Positions 6,876-59,132 of a stretch of DNA of 64,000 bases are shown one piece after another (positions within the stretch are counted from its first letter, which is position 1; each line of letters begins with the position of its first letter). The notes under the pieces were generated by a model, which was not told the DNA's origin, ran no database searches, and worked only from the letters and a program-made list of their open reading frames with translations. This DNA comes from a phage. The DNA is taken from sequence record PZ445527.1; one strand, written 5' to 3'. The translations under genes and the position numbers were made by a program.

Positions 6876-7289
6876 TTAAATCAATTCTATATGTGGGCCA
6901 TCAAAAGTACCACGTTGGATTTCATCCTTATAACTTCCGTTCTGGTTCCAATCACCACCCCATCTAATCTTTACCCCTAGCTCTTCTGCTGCCTTAAAGA
7001 AGGCATCTGCCACTAATTTGAATGATTCTAAATCATTCCAATCAATCTTCCCATTTTTAAGAGGAGCAAAGTCAACGGCCAGCCCTTGTACGTGTTTTGA
7101 CTTGCTCGGGTCTTTTAAAAACGAGGTTCCATTCTTAATATTTTGGGCGCTTTGTTCTAAGGAACGTAATCCTTCTGTAATTGTAAAATCATATGGGCTT
7201 AATTCTAAAGCTCTATGAGTTACTCTTACTAAATCTGGATGAACACCCTTTAATCTATCTAAACTTCTTTTACTAAATTTAAAACTCAT
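6876..7289 (-). CDS. lys: endolysin, L-alanyl-D-glutamate peptidase (M15-type)
   Basis: 137 aa; matches the size and sequence character I recall for T5 endolysin; followed by hairpin terminator. Confidence 0.85.
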   Translation of the reverse strand: MSFKFSKRSLDRLKGVHPDLVRVTHRALELSPYDFTITEGLRSLEQSAQNIKNGTSFLKDPSKSKHVQGLAVDFAPLKNGKIDWNDLESFKLVADAFFKAAEELGVKIRWGGDWNQNGSYKDEIQRGTFDGPHIELI

Positions 7290-7942
7290 ATTGACCTACC
7301 TAAAGACCTCTGTTGTGGGGAACAGAGCTTTGCTAAATATTCCTTGAACTGTTCAGAATCAGCTGTATCTACCGGATTATCTTTCCAAGCAATACCAATG
7401 TACCCAGCATAGATATTTTTTAGATTGAAGTATGGACAAGTGTATATGTAATTAAAAGTAATGTTTTTAAACGCAGGTATATTTAACCCCATATATTTAT
7501 TTACTCTTACACTTAAATCCGATGCGTAGTTAAAGCCCTCTAAATGACGTCTGTATAATTCAGACGTTTTATTTACCGCTTTATCGGCCAAGTCAGCCCT
7601 ATCTAATTGCGCATTACTTTCCCATGCAATAATATTGGAATAATCATTGATAGCATCTGGTTTATACTTGACTACAAAAACAGCATCTGCACCCGTCTGA
7701 GAGAAGAGAACCATGCTCTTTTCCCTCGCCACATTAGGGAAGTTATCTATCCTCTGGGTTTGTAAATCCTGTAAAACTGCAGACGTGGAAAAAGTCTTTA
7801 AGAATGACATCACTTCACTAGTATTACTAACGAATAAGAAAATAATGACAGCAACTAAGATAGTTAGCAGACGTTTAAGAAGCGATGCTGGGTCTTTCGC
7901 TTCTTGGAGCAGTACTGTTAATAATTGTAAGAACTTTTCCAA
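7286..7942 (-). CDS. holin (putative)
   Basis: Immediately upstream of and overlapping endolysin; single TM segment LLTILVAVIIFLFV; start placed at TTG 8 nt after AGGAGG giving 218 aa. Confidence 0.6.
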   Translation of the reverse strand: MEKFLQLLTVLLQEAKDPASLLKRLLTILVAVIIFLFVSNTSEVMSFLKTFSTSAVLQDLQTQRIDNFPNVAREKSMVLFSQTGADAVFVVKYKPDAINDYSNIIAWESNAQLDRADLADKAVNKTSELYRRHLEGFNYASDLSVRVNKYMGLNIPAFKNITFNYIYTCPYFNLKNIYAGYIGIAWKDNPVDTADSEQFKEYLAKLCSPQQRSLGRSI

Positions 7943-15618: not shown

Positions 15619-15692
15619 TGGCAGGGGATATTGGATTTGAACCAATGATCTCGACTTCAAAGGCCGTTGTGCTAACCGTTACACTACTCTCC
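15619..15692 (-). tRNA. tRNA, possibly Gln (anticodon TTG)
   Basis: T-arm ATTGG-TTCAAAT-CCAAT, anticodon loop CTTTGAA, encoded CCA; acceptor stem pairs imperfectly so boundaries and isotype are uncertain. Confidence 0.45.
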
Positions 15693-15784
15693 AATTGTTT
15701 GGCTGGAGTGCCTGATTCAATCCCAGGCACCTTCGGAGTCAGAGGCCGACGACTTGACAATTGATCTACACCTCAAGAATACTA

Positions 15785-16021
15785 TTAACTAGATGCTGGT
15801 TCTGCTGGCTGAGATACAGCAGGCTGTTCTAATGTATCTGGTGCTGATACAGAGAAAAGAGCTTGTAATGCTGCAATATCACGCTCGTAAGTTTCAATAC
15901 GAGTAGTAAGAGTATCTACCATCTGTTTATGATAGGCTAAGTTATTCTGAGATTCATCTCGAAGGGTTTGCAGTTCTGCAAGACGTGTTAACATAATTTC
16001 ACTAATTAAAGCATTACTCAT
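15785..16021 (-). CDS. hypothetical protein
   Basis: 78 aa ORF, helical heptad-like character. Confidence 0.45.
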   Translation of the reverse strand: MSNALISEIMLTRLAELQTLRDESQNNLAYHKQMVDTLTTRIETYERDIAALQALFSVSAPDTLEQPAVSQPAEPASS

Positions 16022-16211
16022 TTGTTTCTCCTAAATTTTCCGGTTCTTCTAAACGTTTGCCTTCATGATCTACTCGAATAACTCCGCATCCTTCGCAAAT
16101 CACAACTGCACCATAACCTTCTTTGACTTCAGCTTCTGTAATCAAACCAGAAAGATCACCAGTATCTCTGCCCCACATATCAATGGAGCATTGTTTGCAG
16201 AAATCAGCCAT
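16014..16211 (-). CDS. small zinc-ribbon-like protein
   Basis: 65 aa with CKQC and CEGC pairs. Confidence 0.45.
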   Translation of the reverse strand: MADFCKQCSIDMWGRDTGDLSGLITEAEVKEGYGAVVICEGCGVIRVDHEGKRLEEPENLGETNE

Positions 16212-16236
16212 ATTTTATTTCCTATTTAAGTTAATT

Positions 16237-16313
16237 TGGGGTGGCTAGTGGAACTCGAATCCACATAGGCCTGATTCACAATCAGGATCATTAACCAATT
16301 ATGATATAGCCAC
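16237..16313 (-). tRNA. tRNA-His (anticodon GTG)
   Basis: Manual fold: acceptor GTGGCTA/TAGCCAC, D-stem TCAT/ATGA, anticodon stem CCTGA/TCAGG with loop TTGTGAA, T-arm GTGGA-TTCGAGT-TCCAC, CCA encoded. Confidence 0.8.
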
Positions 16314-16534
16314 AATTGAAAACTCGCAGGGTTAGCGAAACCATCCTCAATTAGCATGTTCTAGAATACTAATCAAGTTATCTCCTATTGCACGCAGCTC
16401 AAGACGAGTACGAATTTTCAATTGTGGCGGCTCTCAGAAACTCTTCTATTCTAGCCTCAGAAGCTTACCCCCGAACGCATGTCGGGAAAGTCTTTCCAAG
16501 CGCATCAAATAGCACCGTTACACTTTGAGCCATT

Positions 16535-16610
16535 GATGTATCAAGGAATAGAAGGACTTGAACCTTCATGAGTTAGACCATTTAACTCAACCGCTTTTTA
16601 GGGTATATTT
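16535..16610 (-). tRNA. tRNA-like element (unresolved)
   Basis: Perfect T-arm GAAGG-TTCAAGT-CCTTC on minus strand but acceptor and anticodon arms could not be paired by eye. Confidence 0.25.
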
Positions 16611-16679
16611 CTAGGAGTGGATGTTCCTAGTAAACCTATTCGGCAGTCCCGTCTACCAATTCCGGCATATTCCAAGATT

Positions 16680-16774
16680 TGGAGGTAGGTAAGGGGATCG
16701 AACCATTACACCGTATCACTACGGTCAACCGATTTCAAGTCGGAGTCCATCGCCAGCCGTTGGATTGACCTACC
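16680..16774 (-). tRNA. tRNA-Ser (anticodon TGA), class II
   Basis: Acceptor GGTAGGT/ACCTACC perfect, anticodon loop CTTGAAA, long variable arm, CCA encoded. Confidence 0.75.
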
Positions 16775-16786
16775 TTATAAATTGTT

Positions 16787-16871
16787 TGGTGGGTTAGGAG
16801 AGACTCGAACTCTCACGCACTTAAGCAAGGGCTTCTAAGACCCTCGTGGCTACCAATTACACCACTAACCC
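16787..16871 (-). tRNA. tRNA-Leu (anticodon TAG), class II
   Basis: Acceptor GGGTTAG/CTAACCC, anticodon stem AGGGT/GCCCT with loop CTTAGAA, long variable arm, T-arm GAGAG-TTCGAGT-CTCTC, CCA. Confidence 0.75.
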
Positions 16872-16877
16872 CTAATT

Positions 16878-16952
16878 TGGTGGACAGTAGGAGAGTCGAA
16901 CTCCTCACTCCTGAGTGCAAGTCAGGTATTTTCCCAGATAAACTAACCGCCC
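16878..16952 (-). tRNA. tRNA-Ala (anticodon TGC)
   Basis: Acceptor GGGCGGT with G3-U70 wobble, anticodon stem CCTGA/TCAGG with loop CTTGCAC, T-arm AGGAG-TTCGACT-CTCCT, CCA. Confidence 0.75.
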
Positions 16953-17191
16953 AAATTCTTTAATTTACTAAGGCTATTAGCTCGGCGTAACTACAGCACC
17001 TTCGCTTCAAGCGGAAGGAACCGCGTCATCTCGCAAACCCAATACACTATTCAGTTGCCGCTGAATCTAGTGGACTAATCTAGAACTTCTCCCGAGTCGT
17101 AGGGATCGTGCTTTTTGGCAGCCAGTCCTAGGTCGAGCTAATACCTTAGTGAATTATGATGAGGATTTCTCCCATATCAATTTATATAAAT

Positions 17192-17220
17192 ATTATAACA
17201 AGAAATTAATCATCAAGCAA
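17192..17220 (-). promoter_or_regulatory. sigma70-type promoter upstream of non-coding leader and tRNA-Ala/Leu/Ser
   Basis: TTGCTT, 17 nt spacer, TATAAT, then conserved leader ATATTTATATAAATTGA. Confidence 0.65.
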
Positions 17221-17321
17221 TTGAGTTTTTCTTGAAATTGGTAGCGGGTTCCAGTACTGCCCTGGACTTACTTAGCTTATGAGACTAAGAAGAACTCTAT
17301 GCCTTCCACCCGCAATTGTTT

Positions 17322-17400
17322 GGTTATTCTAGACAGGATTCGAACCTGTTATCACTTGTGCGGACTTACGAGAACCATTCTTTCACTCGAATCGAACGAG
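17322..17400 (-). tRNA. tRNA-like element (unresolved)
   Basis: Perfect T-arm ACAGG-TTCGAAT-CCTGT followed by ACCA; remaining arms not confidently paired. Confidence 0.3.
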
Positions 17401-17567
17401 CTTCTGCCCTAGCCAAGCTGGTTTCCCCATCAACCACGCTAGAATGTTTGATTGTTTTCAGTGCAAGAGTCCGAGTCTTGGACACGACCGTTTCGCAAGT
17501 ACATAGGCAGCTTATCATGAGTCAGCACTTCCGAATTGCTAGCCCCGTGTTCTGCACTGAAATTTTA

Positions 17568-17915
17568 TTAGTTTAACCGTAAAGTATTATCTAATTCACC
17601 ATTAATTGTTCGGCATTCCTCTGGAATTGCTGGTGTGGCCTTGTATTCCCACCACTCAGCACCATCATATTCCCCACGTTCTAGCCAAGTTCCGTCGGCA
17701 AACCATACATTACCATAAAGTAATTGTCCACCGTATCCAGAATCATACTCAAAGTCTAGGTTATCAAGAAAATCCTCAATATCTTCTTCTGTATAGCCTA
17801 AAGGTAATACCCAAACTTTTTTATCCCCATAATACCCGAATTCTATTTTAATACACTTAATTTTAGAATTGGTATTTTTTAAGGCAAGTAACAACTCTTC
17901 TTTAGCATTACGCAT
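17568..17915 (-). CDS. hypothetical protein
   Basis: 115 aa ORF between tRNA groups. Confidence 0.5.
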   Translation of the reverse strand: MRNAKEELLLALKNTNSKIKCIKIEFGYYGDKKVWVLPLGYTEEDIEDFLDNLDFEYDSGYGGQLLYGNVWFADGTWLERGEYDGAEWWEYKATPAIPEECRTINGELDNTLRLN

Positions 17916-17940
17916 AGTATATTCTCATACTGAATTAATT

Positions 17941-18017
17941 TGGCGCGACTGATGGGATTTGAACCCACATTCCCTCCCGTGATAGGGGAGTACCATTACC
18001 AAGCCAGCCACGGTCGC
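17941..18017 (-). tRNA. tRNA with unusual anticodon loop CTATCAC (anticodon ATC, isotype uncertain)
   Basis: Acceptor GCGACCG/CAGTCGC, anticodon stem CTCCC/GGGAG, T-arm GTGGG-TTCAAAT-CCCAT, CCA encoded. Confidence 0.6.
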
Positions 18018-18026
18018 ATAATTTAT

Positions 18027-18212
18027 TTACTCAGCTTTGAGTTTTTCAATAGCTGCATTAAGTTCTTTAAGAAACTCTTTTCGTACATTAAGACGATTGA
18101 GACTTACTAGTATATCATGTTTAAGTTCTTCGATGTATTTCTTCTCAACTTCAATATTGTTGATAGTGCTATCACGATGAACTTCTAGCTGCGCAATCAC
18201 ATTCTTGGACAT
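18027..18212 (-). CDS. hypothetical protein
   Basis: 61 aa ORF, charged helical. Confidence 0.4.
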   Translation of the reverse strand: MSKNVIAQLEVHRDSTINNIEVEKKYIEELKHDILVSLNRLNVRKEFLKELNAAIEKLKAE

Positions 18213-18314
18213 GCTTGTTTCCTCAGTTATTAATGAAAATGGTATCTGTGGCTGAATTAGATGTCAGCAATGATAGCTGGTTGGCTACCGGTTTACTTAA
18301 CTCTACACAGAATT

Positions 18315-18397
18315 TGGCGGGCCGTGTAGGATTCGAACCTACGTTGTCTTTCGACACGGATTAACAATCCGCCGCCAAACCGCTTGGCTAACGACCC
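18315..18397 (-). tRNA. tRNA-Asn-like (anticodon GTT) with extended variable arm
   Basis: Acceptor GGGTCGT/ACGGCCC, D-stem GCCA/TGGC, anticodon stem GCGGA/TCCGT loop TTGTTAA, 13-nt variable hairpin, T-arm GTAGG-TTCGAAT-CCTAC, CCA. Confidence 0.6.
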
Positions 18398-18552
18398 TAA
18401 AAAATTTATATTGCTGACTAGGGTTTTCACCTAGACGGAGTTAGCACCGTAGCGTGTAGCGGCATACCTCTCCAAACCGTGCCTCATCTTTCAATTACGG
18501 AGACAGTGTTCCTACGCGTGCCTGAATTGATTTAACAATTCTTTCAGCAAAT

Positions 18553-18628
18553 TGGACGACCGCATGAGGATTGAACTCACATAAAAAGGATTTGCAATCC
18601 TTCGCCTAAGCCATTCAGCCAACGGTCG
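18553..18628 (-). tRNA. tRNA-Cys (anticodon GCA)
   Basis: Acceptor CGACCGT/GCGGTCG, anticodon stem AAGGA/TCCTT loop TTGCAAA, T-arm GTGAG-TTCAATC-CTCAT, CCA. Confidence 0.75.
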
Positions 18629-18806
18629 ATTTATCTTGTTTTTCGAGATCTTCAAACTCTAAATCATTGAAGTTCCCTAGAGTACGGGTATAGAACCCAT
18701 CCCCTGCGTCATAGCCTGATTTACCACAATCACACATTTTAAATTCGCGCAGGTGTGTGAAAACATGTTCAGAACCACAACACTTAAATCTAACTAATCG
18801 TTTCAT
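18615..18806 (-). CDS. small Cys-containing protein
   Basis: 63 aa; CCGSEH and CDCG motifs; 3-prime end overlaps tRNA-Cys by about 14 nt; promoter at 18835..18863. Confidence 0.4.
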   Translation of the reverse strand: MKRLVRFKCCGSEHVFTHLREFKMCDCGKSGYDAGDGFYTRTLGNFNDLEFEDLEKQDKSTVG

Positions 18807-18834
18807 TAGCTTCTCCAGTTCAATTTATGTAATT

Positions 18835-18863
18835 ATTATATAGAACTTTTGGGAACTAAGCAA
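18835..18863 (-). promoter_or_regulatory. sigma70-type promoter
   Basis: TTGCTT, 17 nt spacer, TATAAT. Confidence 0.6.
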
Positions 18864-19145
18864 CTACATTTTTTAAGAATTTGATGCCTTTCTTTTTCTT
18901 CTTATATTTCCACGTTAATGGATTCTGTCGATTATGAACGCTTGAGATCTTTGTCTCGTCAAAGTTCTTCAATATCATGTAATCACAAGATAATTGTTCT
19001 AGTGGAATGTGATCACCGTCAAAAGCGTATACATAAGGCTGTTGACTAGCACGATAATGATAGACTTTGTTAATTCTACGTTTCAGCGACTTATCCGCGC
19101 AGTAAATAAAGAAGTTTTAAGGGTGCATCAGCATCTCCTTCAATT

Positions 19146-19229
19146 TGGTGCATCGTGCTGGATTTGAACCACCAACCCCGAAGGGCACGGATTTACAGAC
19201 CGCTGCAATAGCCATTCTGCCAACGATGC
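19146..19229 (-). tRNA. tRNA-Tyr (anticodon GTA), class II
   Basis: Acceptor GCATCGT/ACGATGC, D-stem GCAG/TTGC, anticodon stem GCGGT/TCCGT loop CTGTAAA, long variable arm, CCA. Confidence 0.8.
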
Positions 19230-19357
19230 ACATTTAAAAGTATTCAAATACTAGTTTAAACACTTTTAAATATGTTTCCAAATTAGATAACTATTATACC
19301 AAGTTTTAAGGCACTGAGCAAGTCAGATTTTGAAGAACTTGCTCAGTGCTGTATTAG

Positions 19358-19642
19358 TTAGTCGAACTTAGGAGTGACAGATAAGGAGAACGGAAGTTCA
19401 AAAACTTCTTCACCCTCATTACTAACGGTAACTACACGACCTTTAAGTTCAGACATTAAAATATCAATATCAGCTTTTGCATCTGGAGCCATGCCAGCTT
19501 CAATACATTTAGCTTTAACTTCCGGTAAAAGCTCTACGTTATAGAGATAGAGCCACTCAATCTCACCTTCCCAGTCTTCCCAGTCTTCCCAGGATTTGCA
19601 GATTGCACTTTCAATACCAGTTGCTACAACACGATTTTGCAT
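19358..19642 (-). CDS. hypothetical acidic protein
   Basis: 94 aa with WEDWEDWEGEIEW repeat; promoter 19673..19702 upstream. Confidence 0.5.
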   Translation of the reverse strand: MQNRVVATGIESAICKSWEDWEDWEGEIEWLYLYNVELLPEVKAKCIEAGMAPDAKADIDILMSELKGRVVTVSNEGEEVFELPFSLSVTPKFD

Positions 19643-19672
19643 TCGTTAACTCCTTCATCAATTTATATAACT

Positions 19673-19702
19673 ATTATACCAGAAATTTAAAGCAAAAGGC
19701 AA
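19673..19702 (-). promoter_or_regulatory. sigma70-type promoter
   Basis: TATAAT with TTGCCT 18 nt upstream. Confidence 0.5.
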
Positions 19703-19732
19703 GTACATTTTTAAAAATTCTGTTTGGAGGAG

Positions 19733-19939
19733 CTAAACTCCAGATTCTTCTGCCAAGTCTAGACTAATAAGAGTTATAGCCATAATTGCTGCACCGTGTT
19801 CTTTTTCTCCGGTGTTTTTAGCAGAGTCTATAATATCCTTAATCTGTTCGTAATAACTTTTTACTTCTTGTTCAATGCCTGCCTCGGCTATCATGCCTTT
19901 AGTCATGAGTCGTTGCATGGTAATTTCAGTATTAGCCAT
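19733..19939 (-). CDS. hypothetical protein
   Basis: 68 aa ORF. Confidence 0.45.
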   Translation of the reverse strand: MANTEITMQRLMTKGMIAEAGIEQEVKSYYEQIKDIIDSAKNTGEKEHGAAIMAITLISLDLAEESGV

Positions 19940-20114
19940 GTTGTTTCTCCAGTTTCATTTTTAATAGTTTACAAATGAAATCAACGTCTTCATCCGTGCC
20001 TAGATCTCTATCTTCAAGGGTTGCCTTGAAATTTTTTGTTAGTTCCATAAGAATAACTTCCCTGGAACGACGTGTTGGCGGGGGTGGATGTCTATACATC
20101 TTATTTCCTTAATT

Positions 20115-20189
20115 TGGTGGGTCGGAGGAGAATCTAACTCCTACTCGTTAGCTTATGAGGCCACCGCTTTAACTTTAAGCTACCGACCC
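20115..20189 (-). tRNA. tRNA-Met or Ile2 (anticodon CAT)
   Basis: Acceptor GGGTCGG/CCGACCC perfect, D-stem GCTT/AAGC, anticodon loop CTCATAA, T-arm AGGAG-TTAGATT-CTCCT, CCA. Confidence 0.75.
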
Positions 20190-20195
20190 TATGTT

Positions 20196-20284
20196 TGGCG
20201 GAAGAAGTGGGAATCGAACCCACAAGGCTATATTTCAAACCGACAGATTAGCAATCTGCTGCAATACCGTTATGCTATTCTTCC
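20196..20284 (-). tRNA. tRNA-Ser (anticodon GCT), class II
   Basis: Acceptor GGAAGAA/TTCTTCC, anticodon stem GCAGA/TCTGT loop TTGCTAA, long variable arm, T-arm GTGGG-TTCGATT-CCCAC, CCA. Confidence 0.8.
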
Positions 20285-20298
20285 GAATTTATAAATAT

Positions 20299-20327
20299 AT
20301 TATATTAGAAATTTAGCTTCATAGCAA
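20299..20327 (-). promoter_or_regulatory. sigma70-type promoter directly upstream of tRNA-Ser(GCT)/tRNA-Met
   Basis: TTGCTA, 17 nt spacer, TATAAT, with the tRNA 5-prime end about 15 nt downstream. Confidence 0.65.
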
Positions 20328-20823
20328 GAAAATTTTTCAAGTTTTCGGTAGACATCTCATCCACATCTACAGGAGAAACAAATCCATTTAATTGTCTAGC
20401 AAATTTTTTACCAGCAGGATCATTATCCCCAACAGCTACCAATTTAAAAGGTAGTAATTTCAATTGCTTTAATAGCGCTTTTCCTGGAGAAGAACCCAAC
20501 ATTGCCAAGGCTGGATAACCAGCGTTATGTAACGCAACTGCCTTAAATACAGATTCAGCAATCAATACCACTTTTTCATCTCCATTGAGAGTTTCTAGTC
20601 CCCATACACACTGTGTAGTAGAATAAGTAAAATATCTAGCTTCAAAGGGGCACTTACCATGACCTTTTGGAGCAGAAGGATTATAAGTCTGATAGCCTCT
20701 CAACATCCCAGAGAAGTCATACAATGGGACTGTTAGCCATCCTTCCGGGCTTAACCAGCAATGATATTTATCTGTATCAAACCCTCTAGATAAGAGATGT
20801 TCTGTTAGTTCATCAACAGTCAT
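20305..20823 (-). CDS. hypothetical protein (possible Toprim-like fold)
   Basis: 172 aa; VAVGDNDPAGKKF resembles a DxD Toprim motif, assignment tentative. Confidence 0.5.
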   Translation of the reverse strand: MTVDELTEHLLSRGFDTDKYHCWLSPEGWLTVPLYDFSGMLRGYQTYNPSAPKGHGKCPFEARYFTYSTTQCVWGLETLNGDEKVVLIAESVFKAVALHNAGYPALAMLGSSPGKALLKQLKLLPFKLVAVGDNDPAGKKFARQLNGFVSPVDVDEMSTENLKNFLAMKLNF

Positions 20824-20860
20824 ATTTGATCCCCTAGTTAGTTGTATAAATACATTATAC

Positions 20861-20894
20861 AGAAAAGCCCTGCGCTCTCCAGTGAACGCAGGGC
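20861..20894 (-). terminator. rho-independent terminator
   Basis: Stem GCCCTGCG...CGCAGGGC followed by T-run on minus strand, after SPFH gene stop. Confidence 0.55.
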
Positions 20895-20919
20895 TTACTT
20901 CGAATATTACGTGTGGGTA

Positions 20920-21867
20920 TTACTTGTTACGCATATCCATAATCATTTGGCCATCGTAACCAGTGCCAACCACAGTCTGCGGTACACCACCTTGATACTT
21001 CTGAGCACGAATCATTTCAACTTCTAGTTGCTTCCAGCGAATCATCTCAGGAGTAATGGTACGTTGCAGAGCGGCGTTAGCTTCAGCTTCTTTCTTAGCT
21101 GCGTACAGTTTAGCATCTGCATCACGTTCGTTTGCAATAGCTTGGTTGTTACGAGCTTCACGATCTGCTTCTGCTTGTTTAACCTTCTGCTGTGCTTCTT
21201 GTTCAACACGAGCCAACTCAGCTTTCGCAGCATTAACTTGTTCTTCACGAACTTTGGTATTCTGTACCTGTTCCATGATTACAGGCGGCAAAGTAATATC
21301 CTGAAGGAACACTTGCTTAACTGTGTAACCATAAGGGCGTGCATACTCTTCAACTTCCTGTTGAATTGCAGTTTGCAATTGAGCCTGAATTTTAGCATCA
21401 AACAAATCTTGTGCTTTAGGTACAGACTTACCAAACTCACGAATAGTAGACAGTAATTTTTCAGTTACATACTTGTCTAGTGCCTGATCCTGAGTACCTG
21501 CATTAATACGGTTAATCGGTGCCTTAGAACCATCAAACTGCAACATAACAGTCAGGTCAACAGTGGATTTAAACTTATCCTGACTAGGAACCTGAAGTTT
21601 ATCTAATTTTACAGCAATATCTTTTGTACTGAAAGTATCGAAAGATGCAAACGGGTTTACAATATGGAAACCAGGTAATACTGGATTAGGGTCTACTTTA
21701 CCAAGAAATGTTTGGGTTTTAACCGTACCATCAGAAACAATAGTATATGAATTAAAAGCTAGGATTAAACCTGCTAAACCAACTACAGCACCAATACCCC
21801 AACGTTTAATAGTACGGATTACTTTCTGCTCAGAAGTCAGTTCTTTCATATTTTTAGTAGCAAACAT
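20920..21867 (-). CDS. SPFH/band-7 (HflK/C, stomatin-like) domain protein
   Basis: 315 aa; N-terminal TM helix, SPFH-like core, long Ala/Gln/Glu-rich coiled-coil C-terminus. Confidence 0.65.
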   Translation of the reverse strand: MFATKNMKELTSEQKVIRTIKRWGIGAVVGLAGLILAFNSYTIVSDGTVKTQTFLGKVDPNPVLPGFHIVNPFASFDTFSTKDIAVKLDKLQVPSQDKFKSTVDLTVMLQFDGSKAPINRINAGTQDQALDKYVTEKLLSTIREFGKSVPKAQDLFDAKIQAQLQTAIQQEVEEYARPYGYTVKQVFLQDITLPPVIMEQVQNTKVREEQVNAAKAELARVEQEAQQKVKQAEADREARNNQAIANERDADAKLYAAKKEAEANAALQRTITPEMIRWKQLEVEMIRAQKYQGGVPQTVVGTGYDGQMIMDMRNK

Positions 21868-21901
21868 ATATTTCCTTTGTTTTAGTTACAGTTAATAAAA
21901 T

Positions 21902-21976
21902 TGGCCGAGGTGACAGGATTCGAACCTGCATAAAGGAATTTAGAAGACTCCTGCCTCTCCCTTAGACTACACCCCG
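21902..21976 (-). tRNA. tRNA-Arg (anticodon TCT)
   Basis: Acceptor CGGGGTG/CACCTCG, D-stem GTCT/AGGC, anticodon stem GGAGT/ATTCC loop CTTCTAA, T-arm GCAGG-TTCGAAT-CCTGT, CCA. Confidence 0.8.
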
Positions 21977-40594: not shown

Positions 40595-40630
40595 AGCCAG
40601 GTTGCTAGTCGACCTGGCTTTTATTTTATT
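40595..40630 (+). terminator. rho-independent terminator after nrdD
   Basis: Hairpin AGCCAGGT...ACCTGGCT followed by TTTTATTTTATTT. Confidence 0.7.
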
Positions 40631-40686: not shown

Positions 40687-41067
40687 ATGAAAGTAAAACC
40701 CTATATAGTTGAGTCTACGTGCGGGAGTTTCCATCTAGGAGTGGATGATATTGCAGAAGCTATCTTTGCTGCTACAGGTGATTACTCCCATATAGGGGGT
40801 GCTGCATACCCCACCGTTATTGGTGATTGGGCGGAAACAAATCTAGATGTATCACCATATAGCTCACATTGCTTGTTTGATGAAGACAGAGATGAGGTAA
40901 AATGTAATCTTGAATTTGTATACAATAGAGTACTAAAAGTCTATCAACACAGTGTTGAGGGATATGAAGATATTACTGGAAGTATTAAACAATATCTTAA
41001 AGATGTATACTCTAATTTTTCTGATGAAGACCTGGAAACAGTTGCAGTGGAGTTTAATAATGACTAA
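40687..41067 (+). CDS. hypothetical protein
   Basis: 126 aa ORF with RBS GAGAGGAG. Confidence 0.5.
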   Translation: MKVKPYIVESTCGSFHLGVDDIAEAIFAATGDYSHIGGAAYPTVIGDWAETNLDVSPYSSHCLFDEDRDEVKCNLEFVYNRVLKVYQHSVEGYEDITGSIKQYLKDVYSNFSDEDLETVAVEFNND

Positions 41068-41293
41068 GAATGTGAAACACCTTAAATATCGCTTAATCTA
41101 TAACGGACGTATGGAAACTGAAGAGCTAGCTCAATTAGCTATTAACTCTAGTGAGGTTATGGTGCGTGCGCTAGCAATTGAAAAGTTGCGTGCTTCTTAT
41201 GAAAGCCGTATTATGCAACTGGAGGAAACCCTTTATGGGCTTCTTGAATCAGAAGCTAAAAGCAACCCAGAGGATAGACCTACTAAGCAATAA
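41060..41293 (+). CDS. hypothetical protein
   Basis: ORF 40952..41293; ATG at 41060 overlaps upstream stop (ATGACTAA), giving 77 aa. Confidence 0.45.
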   Translation: MTKNVKHLKYRLIYNGRMETEELAQLAINSSEVMVRALAIEKLRASYESRIMQLEETLYGLLESEAKSNPEDRPTKQ

Positions 41294-41347
41294 AAGGTAT
41301 GCATATTATGGAATAATTTTACCCCAAAACATTATCGAAGGATTTAA

Positions 41348-42187
41348 GTGAGGAACTGTACAGTGCGTAGATTAATTATTATTAGCGGTGCAGGTTTGAG
41401 CGTTGAAAGTGGTGTACGAGCCTTCCGTACTGATACTGCTAGTGGTAAAGCATTGTGGGATGATTATGACTTAGAAGAGGTATGTAATATTCATGCCTTT
41501 CGTGGTAATTTTTATCATAAAACCCATATGTTTTACAACAAGCGTCGTGAAGAGCTAAAAACTATTGAACCCAATCTTGCGCATCTTCGTATTGGTGAGT
41601 GGTATAAACAATACCCAGGTCAAGTAGTAAACTTGACTACTAACGTCGATGACCTTATTGAGCGTGCTGGCGTTCCGCATAGTGACATTCTACATATTCA
41701 TGGGTATTTAAAAGAGGTTGTTGTAGCTGACAGCTACAATAGCAGTAATAAACGAGTTATTGATGTTGGGTATAGCTCTATTGACCCAGATGATTATAAA
41801 TGGGTTAAACCTAATGTAATCTTCTTTGGTGAGCATGCTCCAGCGTACGCAGAAATGTACAATATTTTTGATGGTATTACCAGTCAAGATATGATCGTTG
41901 TAGTTGGTTGCTCTAACCAAGTAATTAACTTCTACTGGGAATTATTCCCTGTTCTTAATTTGACTGCTGCCAAATTAATGGTAGTTAACTACTATGATAG
42001 TGCCCTAGCGACAGAGCCAGGCTATCAAGGTATGACTCGTAGTGAGATGTACCAGCTGGAAGAACGCGGTATCCCTTACTGGAGTAAAGGGGCTGTAGAT
42101 GCCTTCAGTGACCCTGATTTTATTACTCGTGTAGAAGCTCATCTAGAGGGTAGACCTTATATGCCGGGGAAACAAATATGTCCATAA
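41348..42187 (+). CDS. Sir2-like NAD-dependent protein (deacetylase/ADP-ribosyltransferase family)
   Basis: 279 aa; Sir2-type Rossmann motif GAGLSVESGVRAFR, VIFFGE and VVVGCS segments; no obvious Cys4 zinc module. Confidence 0.65.
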   Translation: MRNCTVRRLIIISGAGLSVESGVRAFRTDTASGKALWDDYDLEEVCNIHAFRGNFYHKTHMFYNKRREELKTIEPNLAHLRIGEWYKQYPGQVVNLTTNVDDLIERAGVPHSDILHIHGYLKEVVVADSYNSSNKRVIDVGYSSIDPDDYKWVKPNVIFFGEHAPAYAEMYNIFDGITSQDMIVVVGCSNQVINFYWELFPVLNLTAAKLMVVNYYDSALATEPGYQGMTRSEMYQLEERGIPYWSKGAVDAFSDPDFITRVEAHLEGRPYMPGKQICP

Positions 42188-42360
42188 TTAAATCTGTGTA
42201 TACACACCCTGATGATATATTTGTATGGGCGGATGGTAGTTGGTGCTATCGCTGTGAGCTGTGGGAAATGGACTATAAATCCGATGACTATGGTGTCATA
42301 TATGTTGATACGGTTGAGTATGATACGTTCTTAGAAAGGGACAAAAGTGGAAATAAGTAA
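42178..42360 (+). CDS. small hypothetical protein
   Basis: 60 aa ORF. Confidence 0.4.
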   Translation: MSIIKSVYTHPDDIFVWADGSWCYRCELWEMDYKSDDYGVIYVDTVEYDTFLERDKSGNK

Positions 42361-42855
42361 TACTCCGATTATTTTTCTAGACATTGATGGGGTGCTCAAT
42401 TCGAGCATCTCCCACCATCATGCACCTGATGATGAAAAGATTTTCTTTGGAAGTGACTGGGTTTTCAAACCGCTTCTCAAGGCTTTTCAGGACTTTATTC
42501 GTCCTTCTCCGATAATGATTGTTGGAGTATCCTCATGGTTCTCTGTCAGGAATGAGGTGGAGAACGTTCACATTATGACCGGATTAGGTCTTATCGATCG
42601 TTTTCTAGGTACAACGGATTTTACAGGGGGGTGGATTATCTAGGGGTAATTCTGTTCTTCGTTTCGTTGAAAAGCATAAGCTCAAACATTGGTGTGTGCT
42701 GGATGATGCTGGTGCTATGATGTATCAGTATCCAACAGTTATAGTCAATGGTAGGACTGGGATAAATCTTCAAGATTTAAAAGCTGTTAGCTATATGCTA
42801 GAATTTAGCCCAGATCTTGAAATGTGTAAATCCTTACAACAATTTAAGGTGTAAA
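42347..42855 (+). pseudogene. HAD-like phosphatase/nucleotidase interrupted by a frameshift at a G6 tract
   Basis: N-terminal ORF 42347..42643 has HAD motif I FLDIDGVLN; continuation with WCVLDD motif is open in a different frame from 42609; frames meet at GGGGGG 42626..42631. Confidence 0.5.
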
Positions 42856-42856
42856 T

Positions 42857-43285
42857 ATGTTCAATAATGTATTCTCTAAAGAAGCTAACCCAATTTTGGT
42901 TAACTTTTGGCGTACTCTTCCAGCCAACCTATACAATGAGGCTATTAATGCTCTGAAAATATGGTGTGAGAATAATGAAATCTCCTTTGCTTTTAAAGGT
43001 GAGATTGAAGAGGCTCCGTGTATTGGTTTAATTGTGCAGGTGGAGGATGGTCTTGAAGAGATTGTCGGCTGGAAAGAGTTAGATGAAATGGGCTTGGTTT
43101 TTGCATTAAACTATAAGCTGTTTATGCCTAATAAACACCGTATTGTTGTTAATTATAAAACCAGTGAATCTCCTGGTTTTCAAGTTAATGAACGGTATGG
43201 TTGGTCTTACTCACCAGAAGAGGTAAATGATGGTATCCAAAAACTTCGCCGTTTTGGTTATCAAATTCCGGGTTTAACTGCCTAA
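42857..43285 (+). CDS. hypothetical protein (tandem paralog A)
   Basis: 142 aa; shares conserved block with the next ORF. Confidence 0.55.
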   Translation: MFNNVFSKEANPILVNFWRTLPANLYNEAINALKIWCENNEISFAFKGEIEEAPCIGLIVQVEDGLEEIVGWKELDEMGLVFALNYKLFMPNKHRIVVNYKTSESPGFQVNERYGWSYSPEEVNDGIQKLRRFGYQIPGLTA

Positions 43286-43294
43286 GGAGGCACA

Positions 43295-43681
43295 ATGGAA
43301 CAAGTATATTGGCGTCAGATTGATCCTAGTTTAGTGAAGCGTGCAGAGAAGCTGCTACAACGTTGGTTGGGGGTAAGACAAGCCTCCTTCACTTTTCCGG
43401 AGCAGCAAACGGATGATCCCTGTATTGGTGTTTTCCTATCAGGCTACGCTAGGGAATTGGATTGGAATGAGTTGTCTGCTATGGGTTTAATTGTTGCACT
43501 AAATTTCTTTTTGTTCCATCCACGTGGTTTGGCCATATGTCGTGTGCCTGATGACGGTTGTTCGCCCCATCTTTTACAGGTGAAAGATGATACTTGGGAG
43601 TACACTCCAGATATTCTCAAAGAAGCCAAAGAACAATTGAATCGTGTTGGAATCTATGTTCCAGGCCTGAATGATGAATGA
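43295..43681 (+). CDS. hypothetical protein (tandem paralog B)
   Basis: 128 aa; similar to preceding ORF; RBS AAGGAGG. Confidence 0.55.
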   Translation: MEQVYWRQIDPSLVKRAEKLLQRWLGVRQASFTFPEQQTDDPCIGVFLSGYARELDWNELSAMGLIVALNFFLFHPRGLAICRVPDDGCSPHLLQVKDDTWEYTPDILKEAKEQLNRVGIYVPGLNDE

Positions 43682-43704: not shown

Positions 43705-43730
43705 GCCGAGTCATTTTGGCTCGGTTTTCT
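43705..43730 (+). terminator. rho-independent terminator
   Basis: Hairpin GCCGAG...CTCGG followed by TTTTCT. Confidence 0.55.
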
Positions 43731-55615: not shown

Positions 55616-56502
55616 GTAGAATAACAGAATTACTTGATCTTAAGGGAATTGAGTATAAAGATACTGGTGGAGATATTTTAATCTGTTGCTTAAATCCAGA
55701 TCATGACGATAAACACCCAAGTTTGCGTATTGACCCTGAAACAGGTATTATGCACTGCTTGAGTTGTGGCTTCGGTAAAGGTATACCGAGCATTTACCAT
55801 TATTTTAATGAGACTCAGTACCGACAGTCCCCAAGACTATCGCAAGTACGTAAAAAGATTTCAGAGATTAGGAATGGATCAACGAATCTTGCAATTCCTG
55901 AATCTGCTTACCTTTTCGAAGGTGATTTCCGAGGTATAAGTTCTAAGACCTTGAAGAAATATTTTGCTTTCCAACACCAAGCAGACTGGGAAGGCAGAAT
56001 TGTATTCCCAATCACAGATGCTGTTGGACGCAATATCCTATTTTTGGGTCGTTCTATAAACAGTTCTGCCCCTCCTAAATACTTAGTAAAACCAAAACAA
56101 GTTTCACCCCCAATTTTTCCTGTACGATATAATACTCCAGTTCTTATTCTAGTTGAAGGCATCTTTGATATGCTGAACCTAGAGGATAATGGTATAGACT
56201 ATGCTTCTTGCTGCTTTGGTACACATCAGTTTACTTCGGATAACATTGCAGATAAGTTCAGTCCTTATATTATTGCCGGTGTAAAAGTTGTTGTTATCTT
56301 ACTAGATAATGATGCTTCTGGTAATAAAGCCGCACAAGCATTGGCCAAGCTAATTCGTACAAAAACACGTTTAACACCTGTAGTTGCTAACTTCTTACTT
56401 CCAGAGGGTAAGGATCCTGGTGATTTAAATAAAGAAGAAGTCGATACGTTAGCAAAACGTATTGAAATTTTAGTTGCTGAATCGCTTAAAGATTTGGTAT
56501 AA
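55612..56502 (+). CDS. DNA primase (DnaG-like zinc finger plus Toprim)
   Basis: 296 aa; CCLNPDHDDKHPSLRID...HCLSCGFGKG zinc finger; Toprim LVEGIFD...LLDNDASGNKAA. Confidence 0.85.
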   Translation: MSRITELLDLKGIEYKDTGGDILICCLNPDHDDKHPSLRIDPETGIMHCLSCGFGKGIPSIYHYFNETQYRQSPRLSQVRKKISEIRNGSTNLAIPESAYLFEGDFRGISSKTLKKYFAFQHQADWEGRIVFPITDAVGRNILFLGRSINSSAPPKYLVKPKQVSPPIFPVRYNTPVLILVEGIFDMLNLEDNGIDYASCCFGTHQFTSDNIADKFSPYIIAGVKVVVILLDNDASGNKAAQALAKLIRTKTRLTPVVANFLLPEGKDPGDLNKEEVDTLAKRIEILVAESLKDLV

Positions 56503-56564: not shown

Positions 56565-59132
56565 TTGAAAATCGCAGTAGTTGATAAAGCTCTAAACAAC
56601 ACTCGTTATGATAAACATTTCCAGCTATACGGCGAGGAAGTTGATGTATTCCATATGTGTAATGAGAAGTTGTCCGGTCGTTTGCTCAAAAAGCATATTA
56701 CTATCGGGACTCCAGAAAACCCATTTGACCCGAATGATTATGATTTTGTTATACTGGTAGGTGCCGAACCTTTTCTGTACTTTGCAGGTAAGAAAGGTAT
56801 TGGTGATTATACCGGTAAACGTGTAGAGTATAATGGATATGCTAACTGGATTGCTAGTATCAGCCCAGCCCAGTTACACTTTAAACCTGAAATGAAACCA
56901 GTTTTTGATGCAACAGTAGAGAATATCCACGATATTATCAATGGTCGTGAGAAGATTGCAAAAGCTGGTGATTACCGTCCTATTACTGGTCCTGACGAGG
57001 CAGAAGAATATATCAAGATGGTATATAATATGGTTATCGGACCTGTCGCATTCGACTCCGAAACCTCAGCACTATACTGTCGAGATGGTTATCTGCTTGG
57101 TGTTTCTATATCTCACCAAGAGTATCAGGGTGTATATATTGATTCTGATTGTCTCACAGAGGTTGCAGTATATTATCTCCAGAAAATTCTGGATAGTGAA
57201 AACCACACTATTGTTTTTCACAACTTGAAGTTTGATATGCACTTTTATAAGTACCACCTGGGACTTACTTTTGATAAAGCACATAAAGAACGCAGGCTCC
57301 ATGATACCATGTTGCAGCACTATGTTCTAGATGAACGTCGTGGTACTCATGGCTTGAAATCTCTAGCAATGAAGTATACCGATATGGGTGACTATGACTT
57401 CGAACTAGATAAGTTCAAAGATGATTACTGCAAAGCACATAAAATCAAGAAAGAAGATTTCACCTATGATTTAATTCCGTTTGATATTATGTGGCCTTAC
57501 GCTGCGAAAGATACAGATGCCACCATACGTTTGCACAACTTCTTCTTACCAAAGATTGAGAAGAATGAAAAACTTTGCAGTCTGTATTACGATGTTTTGA
57601 TGCCTGGTTGCGTATTCTTGCAGCGTGTTGAAGATCGTGGTGTACCTATTTCTATCGATCGTTTAAAAGAAGCTCAGTATCAGTTAACCCATAATCTGAA
57701 TAAAGCCCGTGAGAAACTGTACACTTATCCGGAAGTTAAACAGCTAGAACAAGATCAGAATGAAGCGTTTAACCCGAACTCTGTTAAGCAACTTCGTGTT
57801 CTTCTGTTCGATTATGTTGGTTTGACTCCAACTGGTAAGTTAACAGATACTGGGGCAGATTCTACGGATGCAGAAGCTCTGAATGAACTGGCTACGCAGC
57901 ATCCAATTGCTAAAACTCTACTAGAGATTCGTAAGCTGACTAAGCTGATCTCTACTTATGTTGAGAAGATTCTACTGAGTATTGATGCAGATGGTTGCAT
58001 TCGTACTGGTTTCCATGAACATATGACTACTTCTGGTCGTCTGAGTTCTTCTGGTAAACTGAACCTGCAACAGTTGCCCCGCGATGAATCTATTATCAAG
58101 GGTTGTGTAGTAGCTCCTCCAGGATATCGTGTAATCGCATGGGACTTAACAACTGCGGAAGTTTATTATGCTGCTGTTCTATCTGGGGATAGAAATATGC
58201 AACAGGTATTTATCAACATGAGAAATGAACCTGATAAATACCCAGACTTCCACTCTAACATCGCACACATGGTATTTAAGCTCCAATGCGAACCTCGTGA
58301 TGTTAAAAAGTTATTTCCAGCTCTGCGTCAAGCAGCTAAAGCAATCACCTTTGGTATTCTGTATGGTTCTGGCCCAGCTAAAGTAGCTCATTCTGTTAAC
58401 GAAGCTCTTCTGGAGCAGGCTGCTAAGACAGGCGAACCGTTTGTAGAGTGTACTGTTGCAGATGCTAAAGAGTACATTGAAACTTACTTCGGTCAGTTCC
58501 CGCAGCTTAAGCGTTGGATTGATAAGTGCCACGATCAGATAAAGAATCATGGATTTATCTACAGTCACTTTGGTCGTAAACGTCGTCTGCATAATATCCA
58601 CTCCGAAGACCGTGGTGTTCAGGGTGAAGAAATCCGTTCTGGATTTAACGCAATCATTCAGTCTGCTTCTTCTGATAGTCTCCTTTTAGGTGCTGTAGAT
58701 GCAGATAATGAGATCATTTCTCTTGGCCTAGAACAAGAGATGAAGATTGTTATGCTGGTTCATGACTCCGTAGTTGCTATTGTTCGTGAAGACTTGATCG
58801 ACCAATACAATGAAATCCTGATTCGTAATATTCAGAAAGACCGTGGTATCAGTATTCCTGGCTGTCCGATTGGTATTGATTCAGATTCTGAAGCTGGAGG
58901 TTCTCGTGACTACTCTTGTGGTAAGATGAAGAAACAGCACCCATCAATCGCTTGTATTGATGATGATGAATATACTCGTTATGTCAAGGGTGTATTACTT
59001 GATGCAGAGTTCGAGTATAAGAAACTAGCTGCAATGGATAAAGAGCATCCAGATCATAGCAAGTACAAGGATGATAAGTTTATTGCTGTATGTAAAGATT
59101 TGGATAACGTGAAAAGGATTCTCGGTGCTTAA
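56565..59132 (+). CDS. DNA polymerase, family A with 3-prime-5-prime exonuclease domain
   Basis: ORF 56529..59132; TTG at 56565 follows AGAGGAG and gives 855 aa; Pol A motif B KAITFGILYGSG and motif C LVHDS. Confidence 0.9.
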   Translation: MKIAVVDKALNNTRYDKHFQLYGEEVDVFHMCNEKLSGRLLKKHITIGTPENPFDPNDYDFVILVGAEPFLYFAGKKGIGDYTGKRVEYNGYANWIASISPAQLHFKPEMKPVFDATVENIHDIINGREKIAKAGDYRPITGPDEAEEYIKMVYNMVIGPVAFDSETSALYCRDGYLLGVSISHQEYQGVYIDSDCLTEVAVYYLQKILDSENHTIVFHNLKFDMHFYKYHLGLTFDKAHKERRLHDTMLQHYVLDERRGTHGLKSLAMKYTDMGDYDFELDKFKDDYCKAHKIKKEDFTYDLIPFDIMWPYAAKDTDATIRLHNFFLPKIEKNEKLCSLYYDVLMPGCVFLQRVEDRGVPISIDRLKEAQYQLTHNLNKAREKLYTYPEVKQLEQDQNEAFNPNSVKQLRVLLFDYVGLTPTGKLTDTGADSTDAEALNELATQHPIAKTLLEIRKLTKLISTYVEKILLSIDADGCIRTGFHEHMTTSGRLSSSGKLNLQQLPRDESIIKGCVVAPPGYRVIAWDLTTAEVYYAAVLSGDRNMQQVFINMRNEPDKYPDFHSNIAHMVFKLQCEPRDVKKLFPALRQAAKAITFGILYGSGPAKVAHSVNEALLEQAAKTGEPFVECTVADAKEYIETYFGQFPQLKRWIDKCHDQIKNHGFIYSHFGRKRRLHNIHSEDRGVQGEEIRSGFNAIIQSASSDSLLLGAVDADNEIISLGLEQEMKIVMLVHDSVVAIVREDLIDQYNEILIRNIQKDRGISIPGCPIGIDSDSEAGGSRDYSCGKMKKQHPSIACIDDDEYTRYVKGVLLDAEFEYKKLAAMDKEHPDHSKYKDDKFIAVCKDLDNVKRILGA

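Follow-up and report, generated by a model that had tools for sequence, protein, structure and literature searches.

On what acceptor does a phage sirtuin act when the zinc ribbon of its family has been lost? This question is raised by an open reading frame (ORF) at positions 41348..42187 on the + strand of a 64,000-nucleotide stretch of phage DNA (sequence record PZ445527.1; "the window" hereafter means this whole stretch), which comes from a T5-like phage (Demerecviridae). The initial annotation, made from the sequence alone, described the product as a Sir2-like protein without an obvious Cys4 zinc module and, with an eye to the nearby nrdD gene and to the NADase activity of Sir2 domains in defence systems, supposed that it could modulate nicotinamide adenine dinucleotide (NAD) or ADP-ribosylation. 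From its sequence and predicted structure, we find that the gene very probably encodes an intact, NAD-consuming sirtuin enzyme. As to its activity, we favour that of a CobB-type NAD-dependent lysine deacylase, with acyl-lysines of host or phage proteins as the acceptor, a reading that we place a little below even chances.

The ORF is present as reported, with 279 amino acids from a GTG start, and the three Sir2-type motifs originally picked out, GAGLSVESGVRAFR, VIFFGE and VVVGCS, are all found in its translation. Translation probably starts at the second GTG, at position 41363, because an AGGA sequence (41351-41354) precedes it, relatives are annotated from there and the consensus begins MRRLI; the coding sequence would then occupy 41363..42187 (+) and specify 274 amino acids, and residue numbers below follow this form. 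In a related T5-like locus (L001), the Sir2 coding sequence is annotated at 7016..7840, which matches a start at the second GTG. Membership in the Sir2 family lies far beyond chance. The Pfam SIR2 profile (PF02146) matches the ORF with E=2e-24 and 87 bits (cut-off, 24 bits) and is covered from position 1 to 178 of 180, and the PHROG 2162 profile, 'Sir2 (NAD-dependent deacetylase)', matches with E=1e-119. The best solved sequence relative is Escherichia coli CobB (1s5p; E=1.6e-17), in whose alignment the catalytic His-Gly is retained (LHIHGYL vs IHMHGEL). The 'Sir2-like' call is thereby borne out.

The gene is the orthologue of T5.102, which was identified in the T5 genome record by an InterPro Sir2 match and has been annotated ever since, and so is not a new find. 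It shows 92-96% nucleotide identity to many T5-like phages, and its nucleotide-level matches comprise 236 phage records, labelled 'Sir2-like protein' or 'NAD-dependent deacetylase'; the homologue in vB_EcoS_HdH2 has 98% protein identity. Of 50,697 phage records, 978 (about 2%) encode homologues at the protein level, and in 859 of these at least 80% of the query is covered. The main hosts of the phages that carry them are Escherichia, Salmonella, Klebsiella, Vibrio and Erwinia.

Conservation was assessed in an alignment of 64 phage homologues that are about 55-85% identical to this protein. Forty-two columns, all catalytic motifs among them, are invariant; they include G9, A10, G11, S13, S16, G17, F21, R22 and C41 in the N-terminal part, Y58, R61, R62, T93, N94, V95, D96, H113 and G114 further on, and K149, P150, V152, F154, F155, E157, G182, S184 and N209 towards the C-terminus. 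The NAD-binding motif GAGLSVESGVRAFR corresponds to residues 9-22 (41387..41428), Tyr58-x-x-Arg61 (41534..41545) aligns with Y92/R95 of CobB, and the catalytic His113-Gly114 is encoded at 41699..41704. KPNVIFFGE forms residues 149-157 (41807..41833) and VVVGCS, the GxS NAD-binding motif, residues 179-184 (41897..41914). TTNVD (41636..41650), the form that the sirtuin motif TQNID takes in this clade, retains Asn94 and Asp96 and has Thr93 in place of Gln; all these segments lie on the + strand. This Gln-to-Thr replacement is the sole departure from an otherwise complete sirtuin motif set (GAGxSxxSG..FR, N-x-D, HG, FGE and GxS). Judged by its residues (GAGxSxxSG..FR, Asn94/Asp96, GxS and Asn209), the NAD pocket is intact, and the NAD-pocket, catalytic and acyl-pocket residues appear to be under strong purifying conservation across the phage homologues.

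Structure prediction with comparison to CobB and defence-associated Sir2, the check proposed with the initial annotation, gave a concordant answer. The AlphaFold2 model (mean predicted local distance difference test score (pLDDT) 89.9, predicted template-modelling score 0.87) has the sirtuin fold, in which a Rossmann domain is joined by a small domain. A Foldseek search with it placed CobB (1s5p) at the top (E=2e-17, template-modelling score on the target 0.85), followed by Sir2Af1 and SIRT5. The structural-neighbour scores of other sirtuins were 14.6 for SirTM and 14.3 for SIRT6, and those of defence SIR2 proteins were lower (PsSIR2 13.5, HerA-Sir2 12.4, ThsA 12.2 and Avs5 9.7). A profile of the clade, compared with the PDB, likewise found CobB first (8e-31), then Sir2Af2, Sir2Af1 and SIRT5.

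The acyl pocket was examined at the CobB positions A76, Y92, I131 and V187, which we took from the sequences of deposited engineered CobB variants. In the clade-profile alignment, they correspond to C41, Y58, V95 and V152 of the phage protein, respectively, and CobB R95 (not an engineered position; three residues past Y92) corresponds to R61. Because all of these phage residues are invariant, the hydrophobic lysine tunnel and the anion-binding pocket look preserved. Tyr-x-x-Arg, Y92/R95 in CobB, forms the class III anion-binding acyl pocket, and by alignment Y58 and R61 would supply it in the phage protein. In its sequence and its modelled structure, the protein thus looks like a class III-like member of the CobB/SIRT5/Sir2Af1 branch.

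The absence of the Cys4 zinc ribbon, first noticed in the initial annotation, is real: no Cys occurs between His113 and Glu157, and none stands opposite any zinc cysteine of CobB. The segment from HG to FGE has zero to two Cys in all 64 aligned homologues, and the loss of the zinc site therefore belongs to the whole clade and not to this gene alone. The former zinc-ribbon module (residues 115-148; 41705..41806, +) is Cys-free and is modelled as antiparallel beta strands, with a mean pLDDT of 91-96 over 10-residue blocks. Since these residues are still confidently modelled in this way, a metal-free beta module has probably arisen by decay of the ribbon in situ; the 64-homologue alignment offers no evident conserved ligands for a substitute His/Asp metal site within it. 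The zinc of sirtuins is structural and not catalytic (PMC8556138), so that the missing Cys4 lowers the case for a 'canonical sirtuin' but not for a 'sirtuin enzyme'. A missing zinc ligand in the small domain had been described by Skliros et al. 2016 for the sirtuins of Vibrio phages and KVP40, with T5 named as a carrier (PMC5107563).

The wider family shows how the two changes are distributed. A HMMER search of 1.84 billion representative proteins yielded 752 relatives at E<=1e-10, of which the best 150 were inspected. Among these 150, the closest relatives are Cys-free with TTNVD, whereas more distant ones have TQN(I/V)D together with CxxC...CxxC, in a segment of similar length that shares a central 'IGY' motif. 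For the 120 that could be parsed, Gln was accompanied by at least three Cys in 67 and Thr or Ser by at most one Cys in 34, with other combinations in the remaining 19. Across these sequences, the change from Gln to Thr in TQNID tracks the loss of the zinc cysteines. The zinc ribbon is retained in jumbo-phage relatives (contigs of 279 kb and 608 kb) and lost in relatives on contigs of 86 kb and 120 kb.

If the chemistry is that usual for sirtuins, a substrate oxygen would be the nucleophile that attacks C1'' of NAD+ with departure of nicotinamide, and the 2''-OH, activated by His113, would then resolve the adduct. In a CobB-like deacylase, the nucleophile would be that of an acyl-lysine on a host or phage protein, and the retained Tyr-x-x-Arg suggests that succinyl- or malonyl-type groups may be removed besides acetyl. 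We favour the deacylase because the closest relatives in sequence and structure are deacylases, because the tunnel and Tyr-x-x-Arg look preserved, and because the clade is uniformly acidic (median isoelectric point (pI) 5.2, net charge about -12), which is more in keeping with a cytosolic protein-modifying enzyme than with an RNA binder, for which it would be unusual. The NAD salvage genes found beside some relatives (see below) fit a true NAD consumer that releases nicotinamide.

Several observations pull the other way. The protein misses the NCBIfam CobB cut-offs (best scores, 100 bits vs 243 for NF001753 and 88 vs 320 for NF040867), and is therefore a divergent offshoot and not a CobB orthologue. 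The Gln-to-Thr replacement falls in the most conserved catalytic motif and could signal altered chemistry; it is explained neither by a deacylase nor by the KptA-like activity discussed below. The gene context shows repeated linkage to genes predicted to process RNA ends (HAD_SAK_2 in 28 of 60 viral loci, and Rnl1, kinase and Metallophos in 11), RlaP or Rnl1 is found near the jumbo-phage sirtuins, and no acetyltransferase or obvious protein target was linked to the sirtuin gene in the viral loci surveyed. The host has CobB already, and the benefit of a second, generic deacylase is not obvious. Finally, our search of the literature (T5 Sir2, phage and viral sirtuins) found no assay of any member of the phage clade.

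The informative neighbour of the sirtuin gene is a HAD_SAK_2 phosphatase gene downstream, which is absent from the initial annotation. This orthologue of T5.105 begins 160 nt past the Sir2 stop codon, two ORFs downstream, and occupies 42347..42854 (+), split in the window into 42347..42643 and 42696..42854. PF18143 (HAD_SAK_2, 'HAD domain in Swiss Army Knife RNA repair proteins') matches the intact orthologue with E=5.6e-19 and the window fragment with 9.8e-11; compared with the PDB by sequence, the HAD protein gave only spurious His-tag matches. In the 60 viral loci that we surveyed around sirtuin homologues, the 28 linked HAD_SAK_2 genes, those of T5-like phages included, lie within about 0.6-1.1 kb of the sirtuin. 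Erwinia phage KEY has the HAD gene on the opposite side, showing that the link survives rearrangement.

A second type of neighbourhood, seen in the 11 loci mentioned above (phage contigs of about 90-150 kb), brings together Metallophos, RNA_lig_T4_1 (Rnl1), an AAA_33 kinase, the sirtuin and a DNA ligase, with cREC in 8 of the 11. The homologues encoded beside Rnl1, cREC, kinase and calcineurin-like phosphoesterase are 58-62% identical to this protein. Where such loci extend far enough (phages of about 145 kb), NAPRT and phosphoribosyl pyrophosphate (PRPP) synthetase genes lie about 5-8 kb upstream, and in six of them NADAR lies about 6 kb downstream of the sirtuin. Other arrangements occur: Rnl1 is about 1.2 kb upstream of the sirtuin in a 608-kb phage; RlaP is about 2.3 kb from it in a 279-kb phage, with a deoxyribosyltransferase-like gene also nearby; the order in a 120-kb phage is NAMPT-x-sirtuin-EndoVII-NrdD-NrdG; and NAMPT lies about 0.5 kb upstream of the sirtuin of a zinc-less relative (L064). 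In rV5-like phages, the HAD, Rnl1-module and NAD-salvage genes are not near the sirtuin, the Rnl module being about 30 kb off on the same contig. These neighbourhoods independently reproduce those of Iyer et al. 2022, who proposed the viral sirtuin clade to act in RNA repair (section 3.7.3) and whose type 3 neighbourhood is typified by Escherichia phage SP15, a Tequintavirus (PMC9503650).

We also collected 79 viral loci around Rnl1 homologues, clustered all of their ORFs and annotated ten recurrent clusters, as a test for displacement of the sirtuin by another family. The loci contained Metallophos (55), DNA ligase (40), NAPRT (33), PRPP synthetase (29), an Rv2179c-like exoribonuclease (14), Macro (13), a MazG-like protein (12), the sirtuin (11) and cREC (10). 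No KptA-like family was found at the sirtuin slot among the ten annotated clusters. As a separate observation, phage Rnl1 modules repeatedly have NAD salvage genes (NAPRT or NAMPT with PRPP synthetase), often with Macro or NADAR, no more than a few kb away, both where a sirtuin occurs and where it does not; examples are L002/L003 (592-3133 and 14023-14720), L064 (6057-7490) and 33 of the 79 Rnl1 loci (L067-L145). Macro and the sirtuin were never in one locus among the Rnl1 loci examined.

The RNA-repair proposal, put forward for the main viral sirtuin clade, would make the protein a KptA/Tpt1-like enzyme. It would transfer ADP-ribose from NAD+ onto the 2'-phosphate of tRNA cut by metal-independent host nucleases, leaving ADP-ribose 1'',2''-cyclic phosphate and a 2'-OH, and removal of other terminal phosphates would fall to the HAD_SAK_2 protein. 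In formal terms, the chemistry of sirtuins parallels that of Tpt1, in that an oxygen nucleophile attacks C1'' of NAD and the ribose 2''-OH attacks next. Tyr58 and Arg61 could bind the phosphate, and the HAD_SAK_2 linkage with its inversion in phage KEY, the 11 Rnl1-type loci and the nearby Rnl1 and RlaP of the two jumbo phages all speak for such a role. We nevertheless regard it as unlikely, although it is the strongest rival of the deacylase. The argument is one of guilt by association, and we know of no sirtuin that acts on nucleic acid. Proteins of the clade are strongly acidic and showed no conserved basic residues other than those general to sirtuins, and their conserved, narrow, hydrophobic lysine-tunnel residues suit an aliphatic side chain and not a ribose phosphate. 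The sirtuin is present in only 11 of the 79 Rnl1 loci, where no KptA displacement was seen in the clusters examined; the rV5-like sirtuin is remote from its Rnl module; and the 75 kb of T5 that we inspected has no annotated RNA ligase. Ten longer relatives carry no RNA-related domain fusions, the only additions being tandem Sir2 domains and WG or RHS repeats. A more ambitious form of the proposal is that the zinc-free phage sirtuins are the first nucleic-acid-directed sirtuins, which would strip 2'-phosphates or another terminal phosphate adduct from RNA ends, as KptA/Tpt1 does with an unrelated fold, and, with HAD_SAK_2, would restore tRNAs cut by host anticodon nucleases, the Gln-to-Thr change and the metal-free domain being adaptations to a phosphate nucleophile; this we consider doubtful, and a somewhat longer shot.

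Modulation of NAD itself, by a defence-like NADase or by a counter-defence factor that acts on the NAD pool or on ADP-ribose signals, strikes us as improbable. The NAD pocket and the catalytic His are intact, as such an activity would need, the neighbours of some relatives include NAD salvage genes, NADAR or an Acb2/Tad1-like gene, and defence SIR2 proteins are NADases (PMC9503650). However, PADLOC found no match to a defence model (the best hit, to an unrelated restriction-enzyme model, had E=0.031), and none of the partner or sensor domains SLOG, HerA, pAgo, STAND and TIR is encoded in the operon. NAD depletion would also hurt a phage that encodes its own NAD-dependent DNA ligase, and conservation of the acyl pocket speaks against water as the acceptor. 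With the lower structural scores of defence SIR2 proteins and the retained class III Tyr-x-x-Arg, these results speak against the analogy to defence NADases drawn in the initial annotation. The ligase of T5 is split into ligA and ligB (L148, 15364-17317), about 8 kb downstream of the sirtuin operon; counting the sirtuin, T5 therefore has at least two predicted NAD-consuming enzymes.

Still less probable is a SirTM-like mono-ADP-ribosyltransferase that would modify a host or phage protein early in infection. The guesses in the T5 record itself include 'ADP-ribosylase', and the Gln-to-Thr change in TQNID hints at altered ribose handling, but no Macro domain is adjacent or fused in the operon examined, and Iyer et al. 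also noted that the Macro partner is missing for the viral clade (PMC9503650). Moreover, the structure is closer to deacylases than to SirTM, and the protein has kept both the catalytic His and the class III pocket. That the gene is a decaying, functionless remnant, destabilised by zinc loss and kept by linkage alone, is hardly credible: it has lost its zinc ligands, a frameshift breaks the partner HAD gene in the window and the T5-like phage DT57C keeps only a 90-amino-acid 'defective' piece, but the sirtuin ORF of the window is intact, every catalytic motif lies within invariant columns, homologues near full length are widespread, and the zinc-free module is modelled with high confidence.

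The CobB-like deacylase thus remains our preferred reading, and two features of the locus bear on whether the gene is dispensable. The HAD_SAK_2 gene of the window is broken by one extra base at A42625/G42626-42631 (TTTTAC-A-GGGGGG); in all 24 related T5-like loci checked, the HAD ORF is intact (168 amino acids), and a one-base deletion restores the frame in the window. The frameshift may be a homopolymer sequencing error or may mark a real pseudogene. DT57C (NC_027356.1; a deposited, complete T5-like isolate) has only the 90-amino-acid ORF (L146, 2480-2752; annotated 'Sir2-like (defective)'), in which sirtuin residues ~169-233 are fused to HAD residues 132-168. The joint loss of the sirtuin, the 60-amino-acid ORF between the two genes and HAD in DT57C suggests that the module, the sirtuin gene included, is accessory and not essential. 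There is also confusion in the names: PHROG 18062 is labelled 'Sir2' though its match is confined to the C-terminal half of the HAD protein, and RefSeq records, including T5.105, call the HAD phosphatase (at 8000-8506 in L001) 'Sir2 (NAD-dependent deacetylase)'. The DT57C deletion chimera appears to be the source of both mislabels.

The sirtuin gene belongs to a group of seven + strand ORFs (40687 to 43681) bracketed by two terminator-like hairpins. The upstream boundary is the hairpin after nrdD (40595..40619, +), which is followed by the phrog_11748 ORF (40687..41067, +; orthologue of T5.100) and the phrog_5236 ORF (41063..41293, +; orthologue of T5.101), both in the same transcription unit as the sirtuin. 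Downstream of it come the 60-amino-acid ORF (phrog_5116; 42178..42360, +), which shares 10 nt with the end of the Sir2 gene and 14 nt with the beginning of the HAD gene, the HAD_SAK_2 gene, a DUF7415 protein gene of the same operon (42857..43285, +; orthologue of T5.106), a second DUF7415 paralogue (43295..43681, +; orthologue of T5.107) and the downstream boundary hairpin (43705..43725, +). The equivalent unit in T5, T5.100-T5.107, has in its annotation a promoter (55708-55782) and a terminator (58952-58976) to itself. nrdD does lie near the sirtuin gene, as had been noted, about 0.8 kb upstream of it, but the hairpin at 40595-40619 separates them and the two do not form a functional unit, and the T5 record has a terminator and a new promoter at this place. 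Elsewhere in the window, as also in T5, a distance of about 20 kb separates the sirtuin operon from a cluster of 12 tRNA genes (Gln, His, Ser x2, Leu, Ala, Asp, Asn, Cys, Tyr, Met and Arg) at 15619..21976 (-); ARAGORN gives the Asp tRNA the anticodon ATC, while the T5 tRNA-Asp is annotated GUC.

The gene, its family, its distribution among phages, its context and the functional hypothesis have all been described before, and zinc loss has been described for the Vibrio-phage relatives. The finding by itself therefore changes little, in that it re-identifies an annotated gene and a structural quirk known from related phage sirtuins. Nevertheless, the clade is present in about 2% of sequenced phage records, where genes for RNA-end processing or NAD salvage are often its neighbours, and the question of its acceptor is easy to test. 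A plain deacylase would mean that phages edit host or phage acyl-lysine marks early in infection. An enzyme acting on RNA 2'-phosphates would extend sirtuin chemistry to nucleic acids and give phage tRNA repair an NAD-dependent arm.

Among known systems, KptA/Tpt1 has the fold of the ADP-ribosyltransferases (ART), whereas the fold here is that of a sirtuin, and the protein is therefore not a member of that family. The defence SIR2 NADases (ThsA, DSR1/2, SIR2-HerA, pAgo-associated SIR2 and Avs5) share the superfamily fold with its NAD-binding Rossmann core. They differ from the phage gene, which has neither a PADLOC match nor partner domains in its operon and which belongs to an early metabolic operon of a virulent phage. 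To our knowledge, defence SIR2 domains also have no canonical zinc ribbon. The NAD-dependent lysine deacylases CobB, SIRT5, Sir2Af1 and PfSir2A share GAGxS..FR, N-x-D, HG, FGE, GxS and Tyr-x-x-Arg with the phage protein. Identity to CobB is only about 25%, and the phage protein differs from it in the missing zinc Cys, in TTNVD for TQNID and in VIN for the VYP that follows GxS; it also has an extra stretch past Asn209 relative to homologues of 250-258 amino acids.

Phage sirtuins offer closer parallels. The Vibrio 'schizoT4-like' phages (phiSt2, phiGrn1 and KVP40) encode a homologous Sir2/CobB protein, which is more distant (Vibrio phage matches at 35-40% identity) and resides in genomes of about 246 kb. 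Skliros et al. 2016 tied that sirtuin to phage NAD biosynthesis genes and offered deacetylation with acetyl-CoA synthetase (ACS) activation as a proposal (PMC5107563). Of the neighbourhoods defined by Iyer et al. 2022 (PMC9503650), type 2 (Rnl1, cREC, kinase and calcineurin-like phosphoesterase) is reproduced in homologues, while type 3 (SP15), a sirtuin with a 'Swiss-army-knife' HAD phosphatase in a Tequintavirus, has the same arrangement as the window. The KptA-like assignment made there is a prediction, against which the acidity, the lysine tunnel and the frequency of 11 in 79 Rnl1 loci weigh in part, as far as RNA binding is concerned. The closest counterparts are T5.102 and its Demerecviridae orthologues (PHROG 2162), which represent the same gene within the same operon boundaries and in the same position, after nrdD and before the HAD gene, the DUF7415 pair and the gene for the origin-binding protein. 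The locus described here differs from them only in the +1 frameshift of its HAD gene, which is shown by 0 of 24 related loci.

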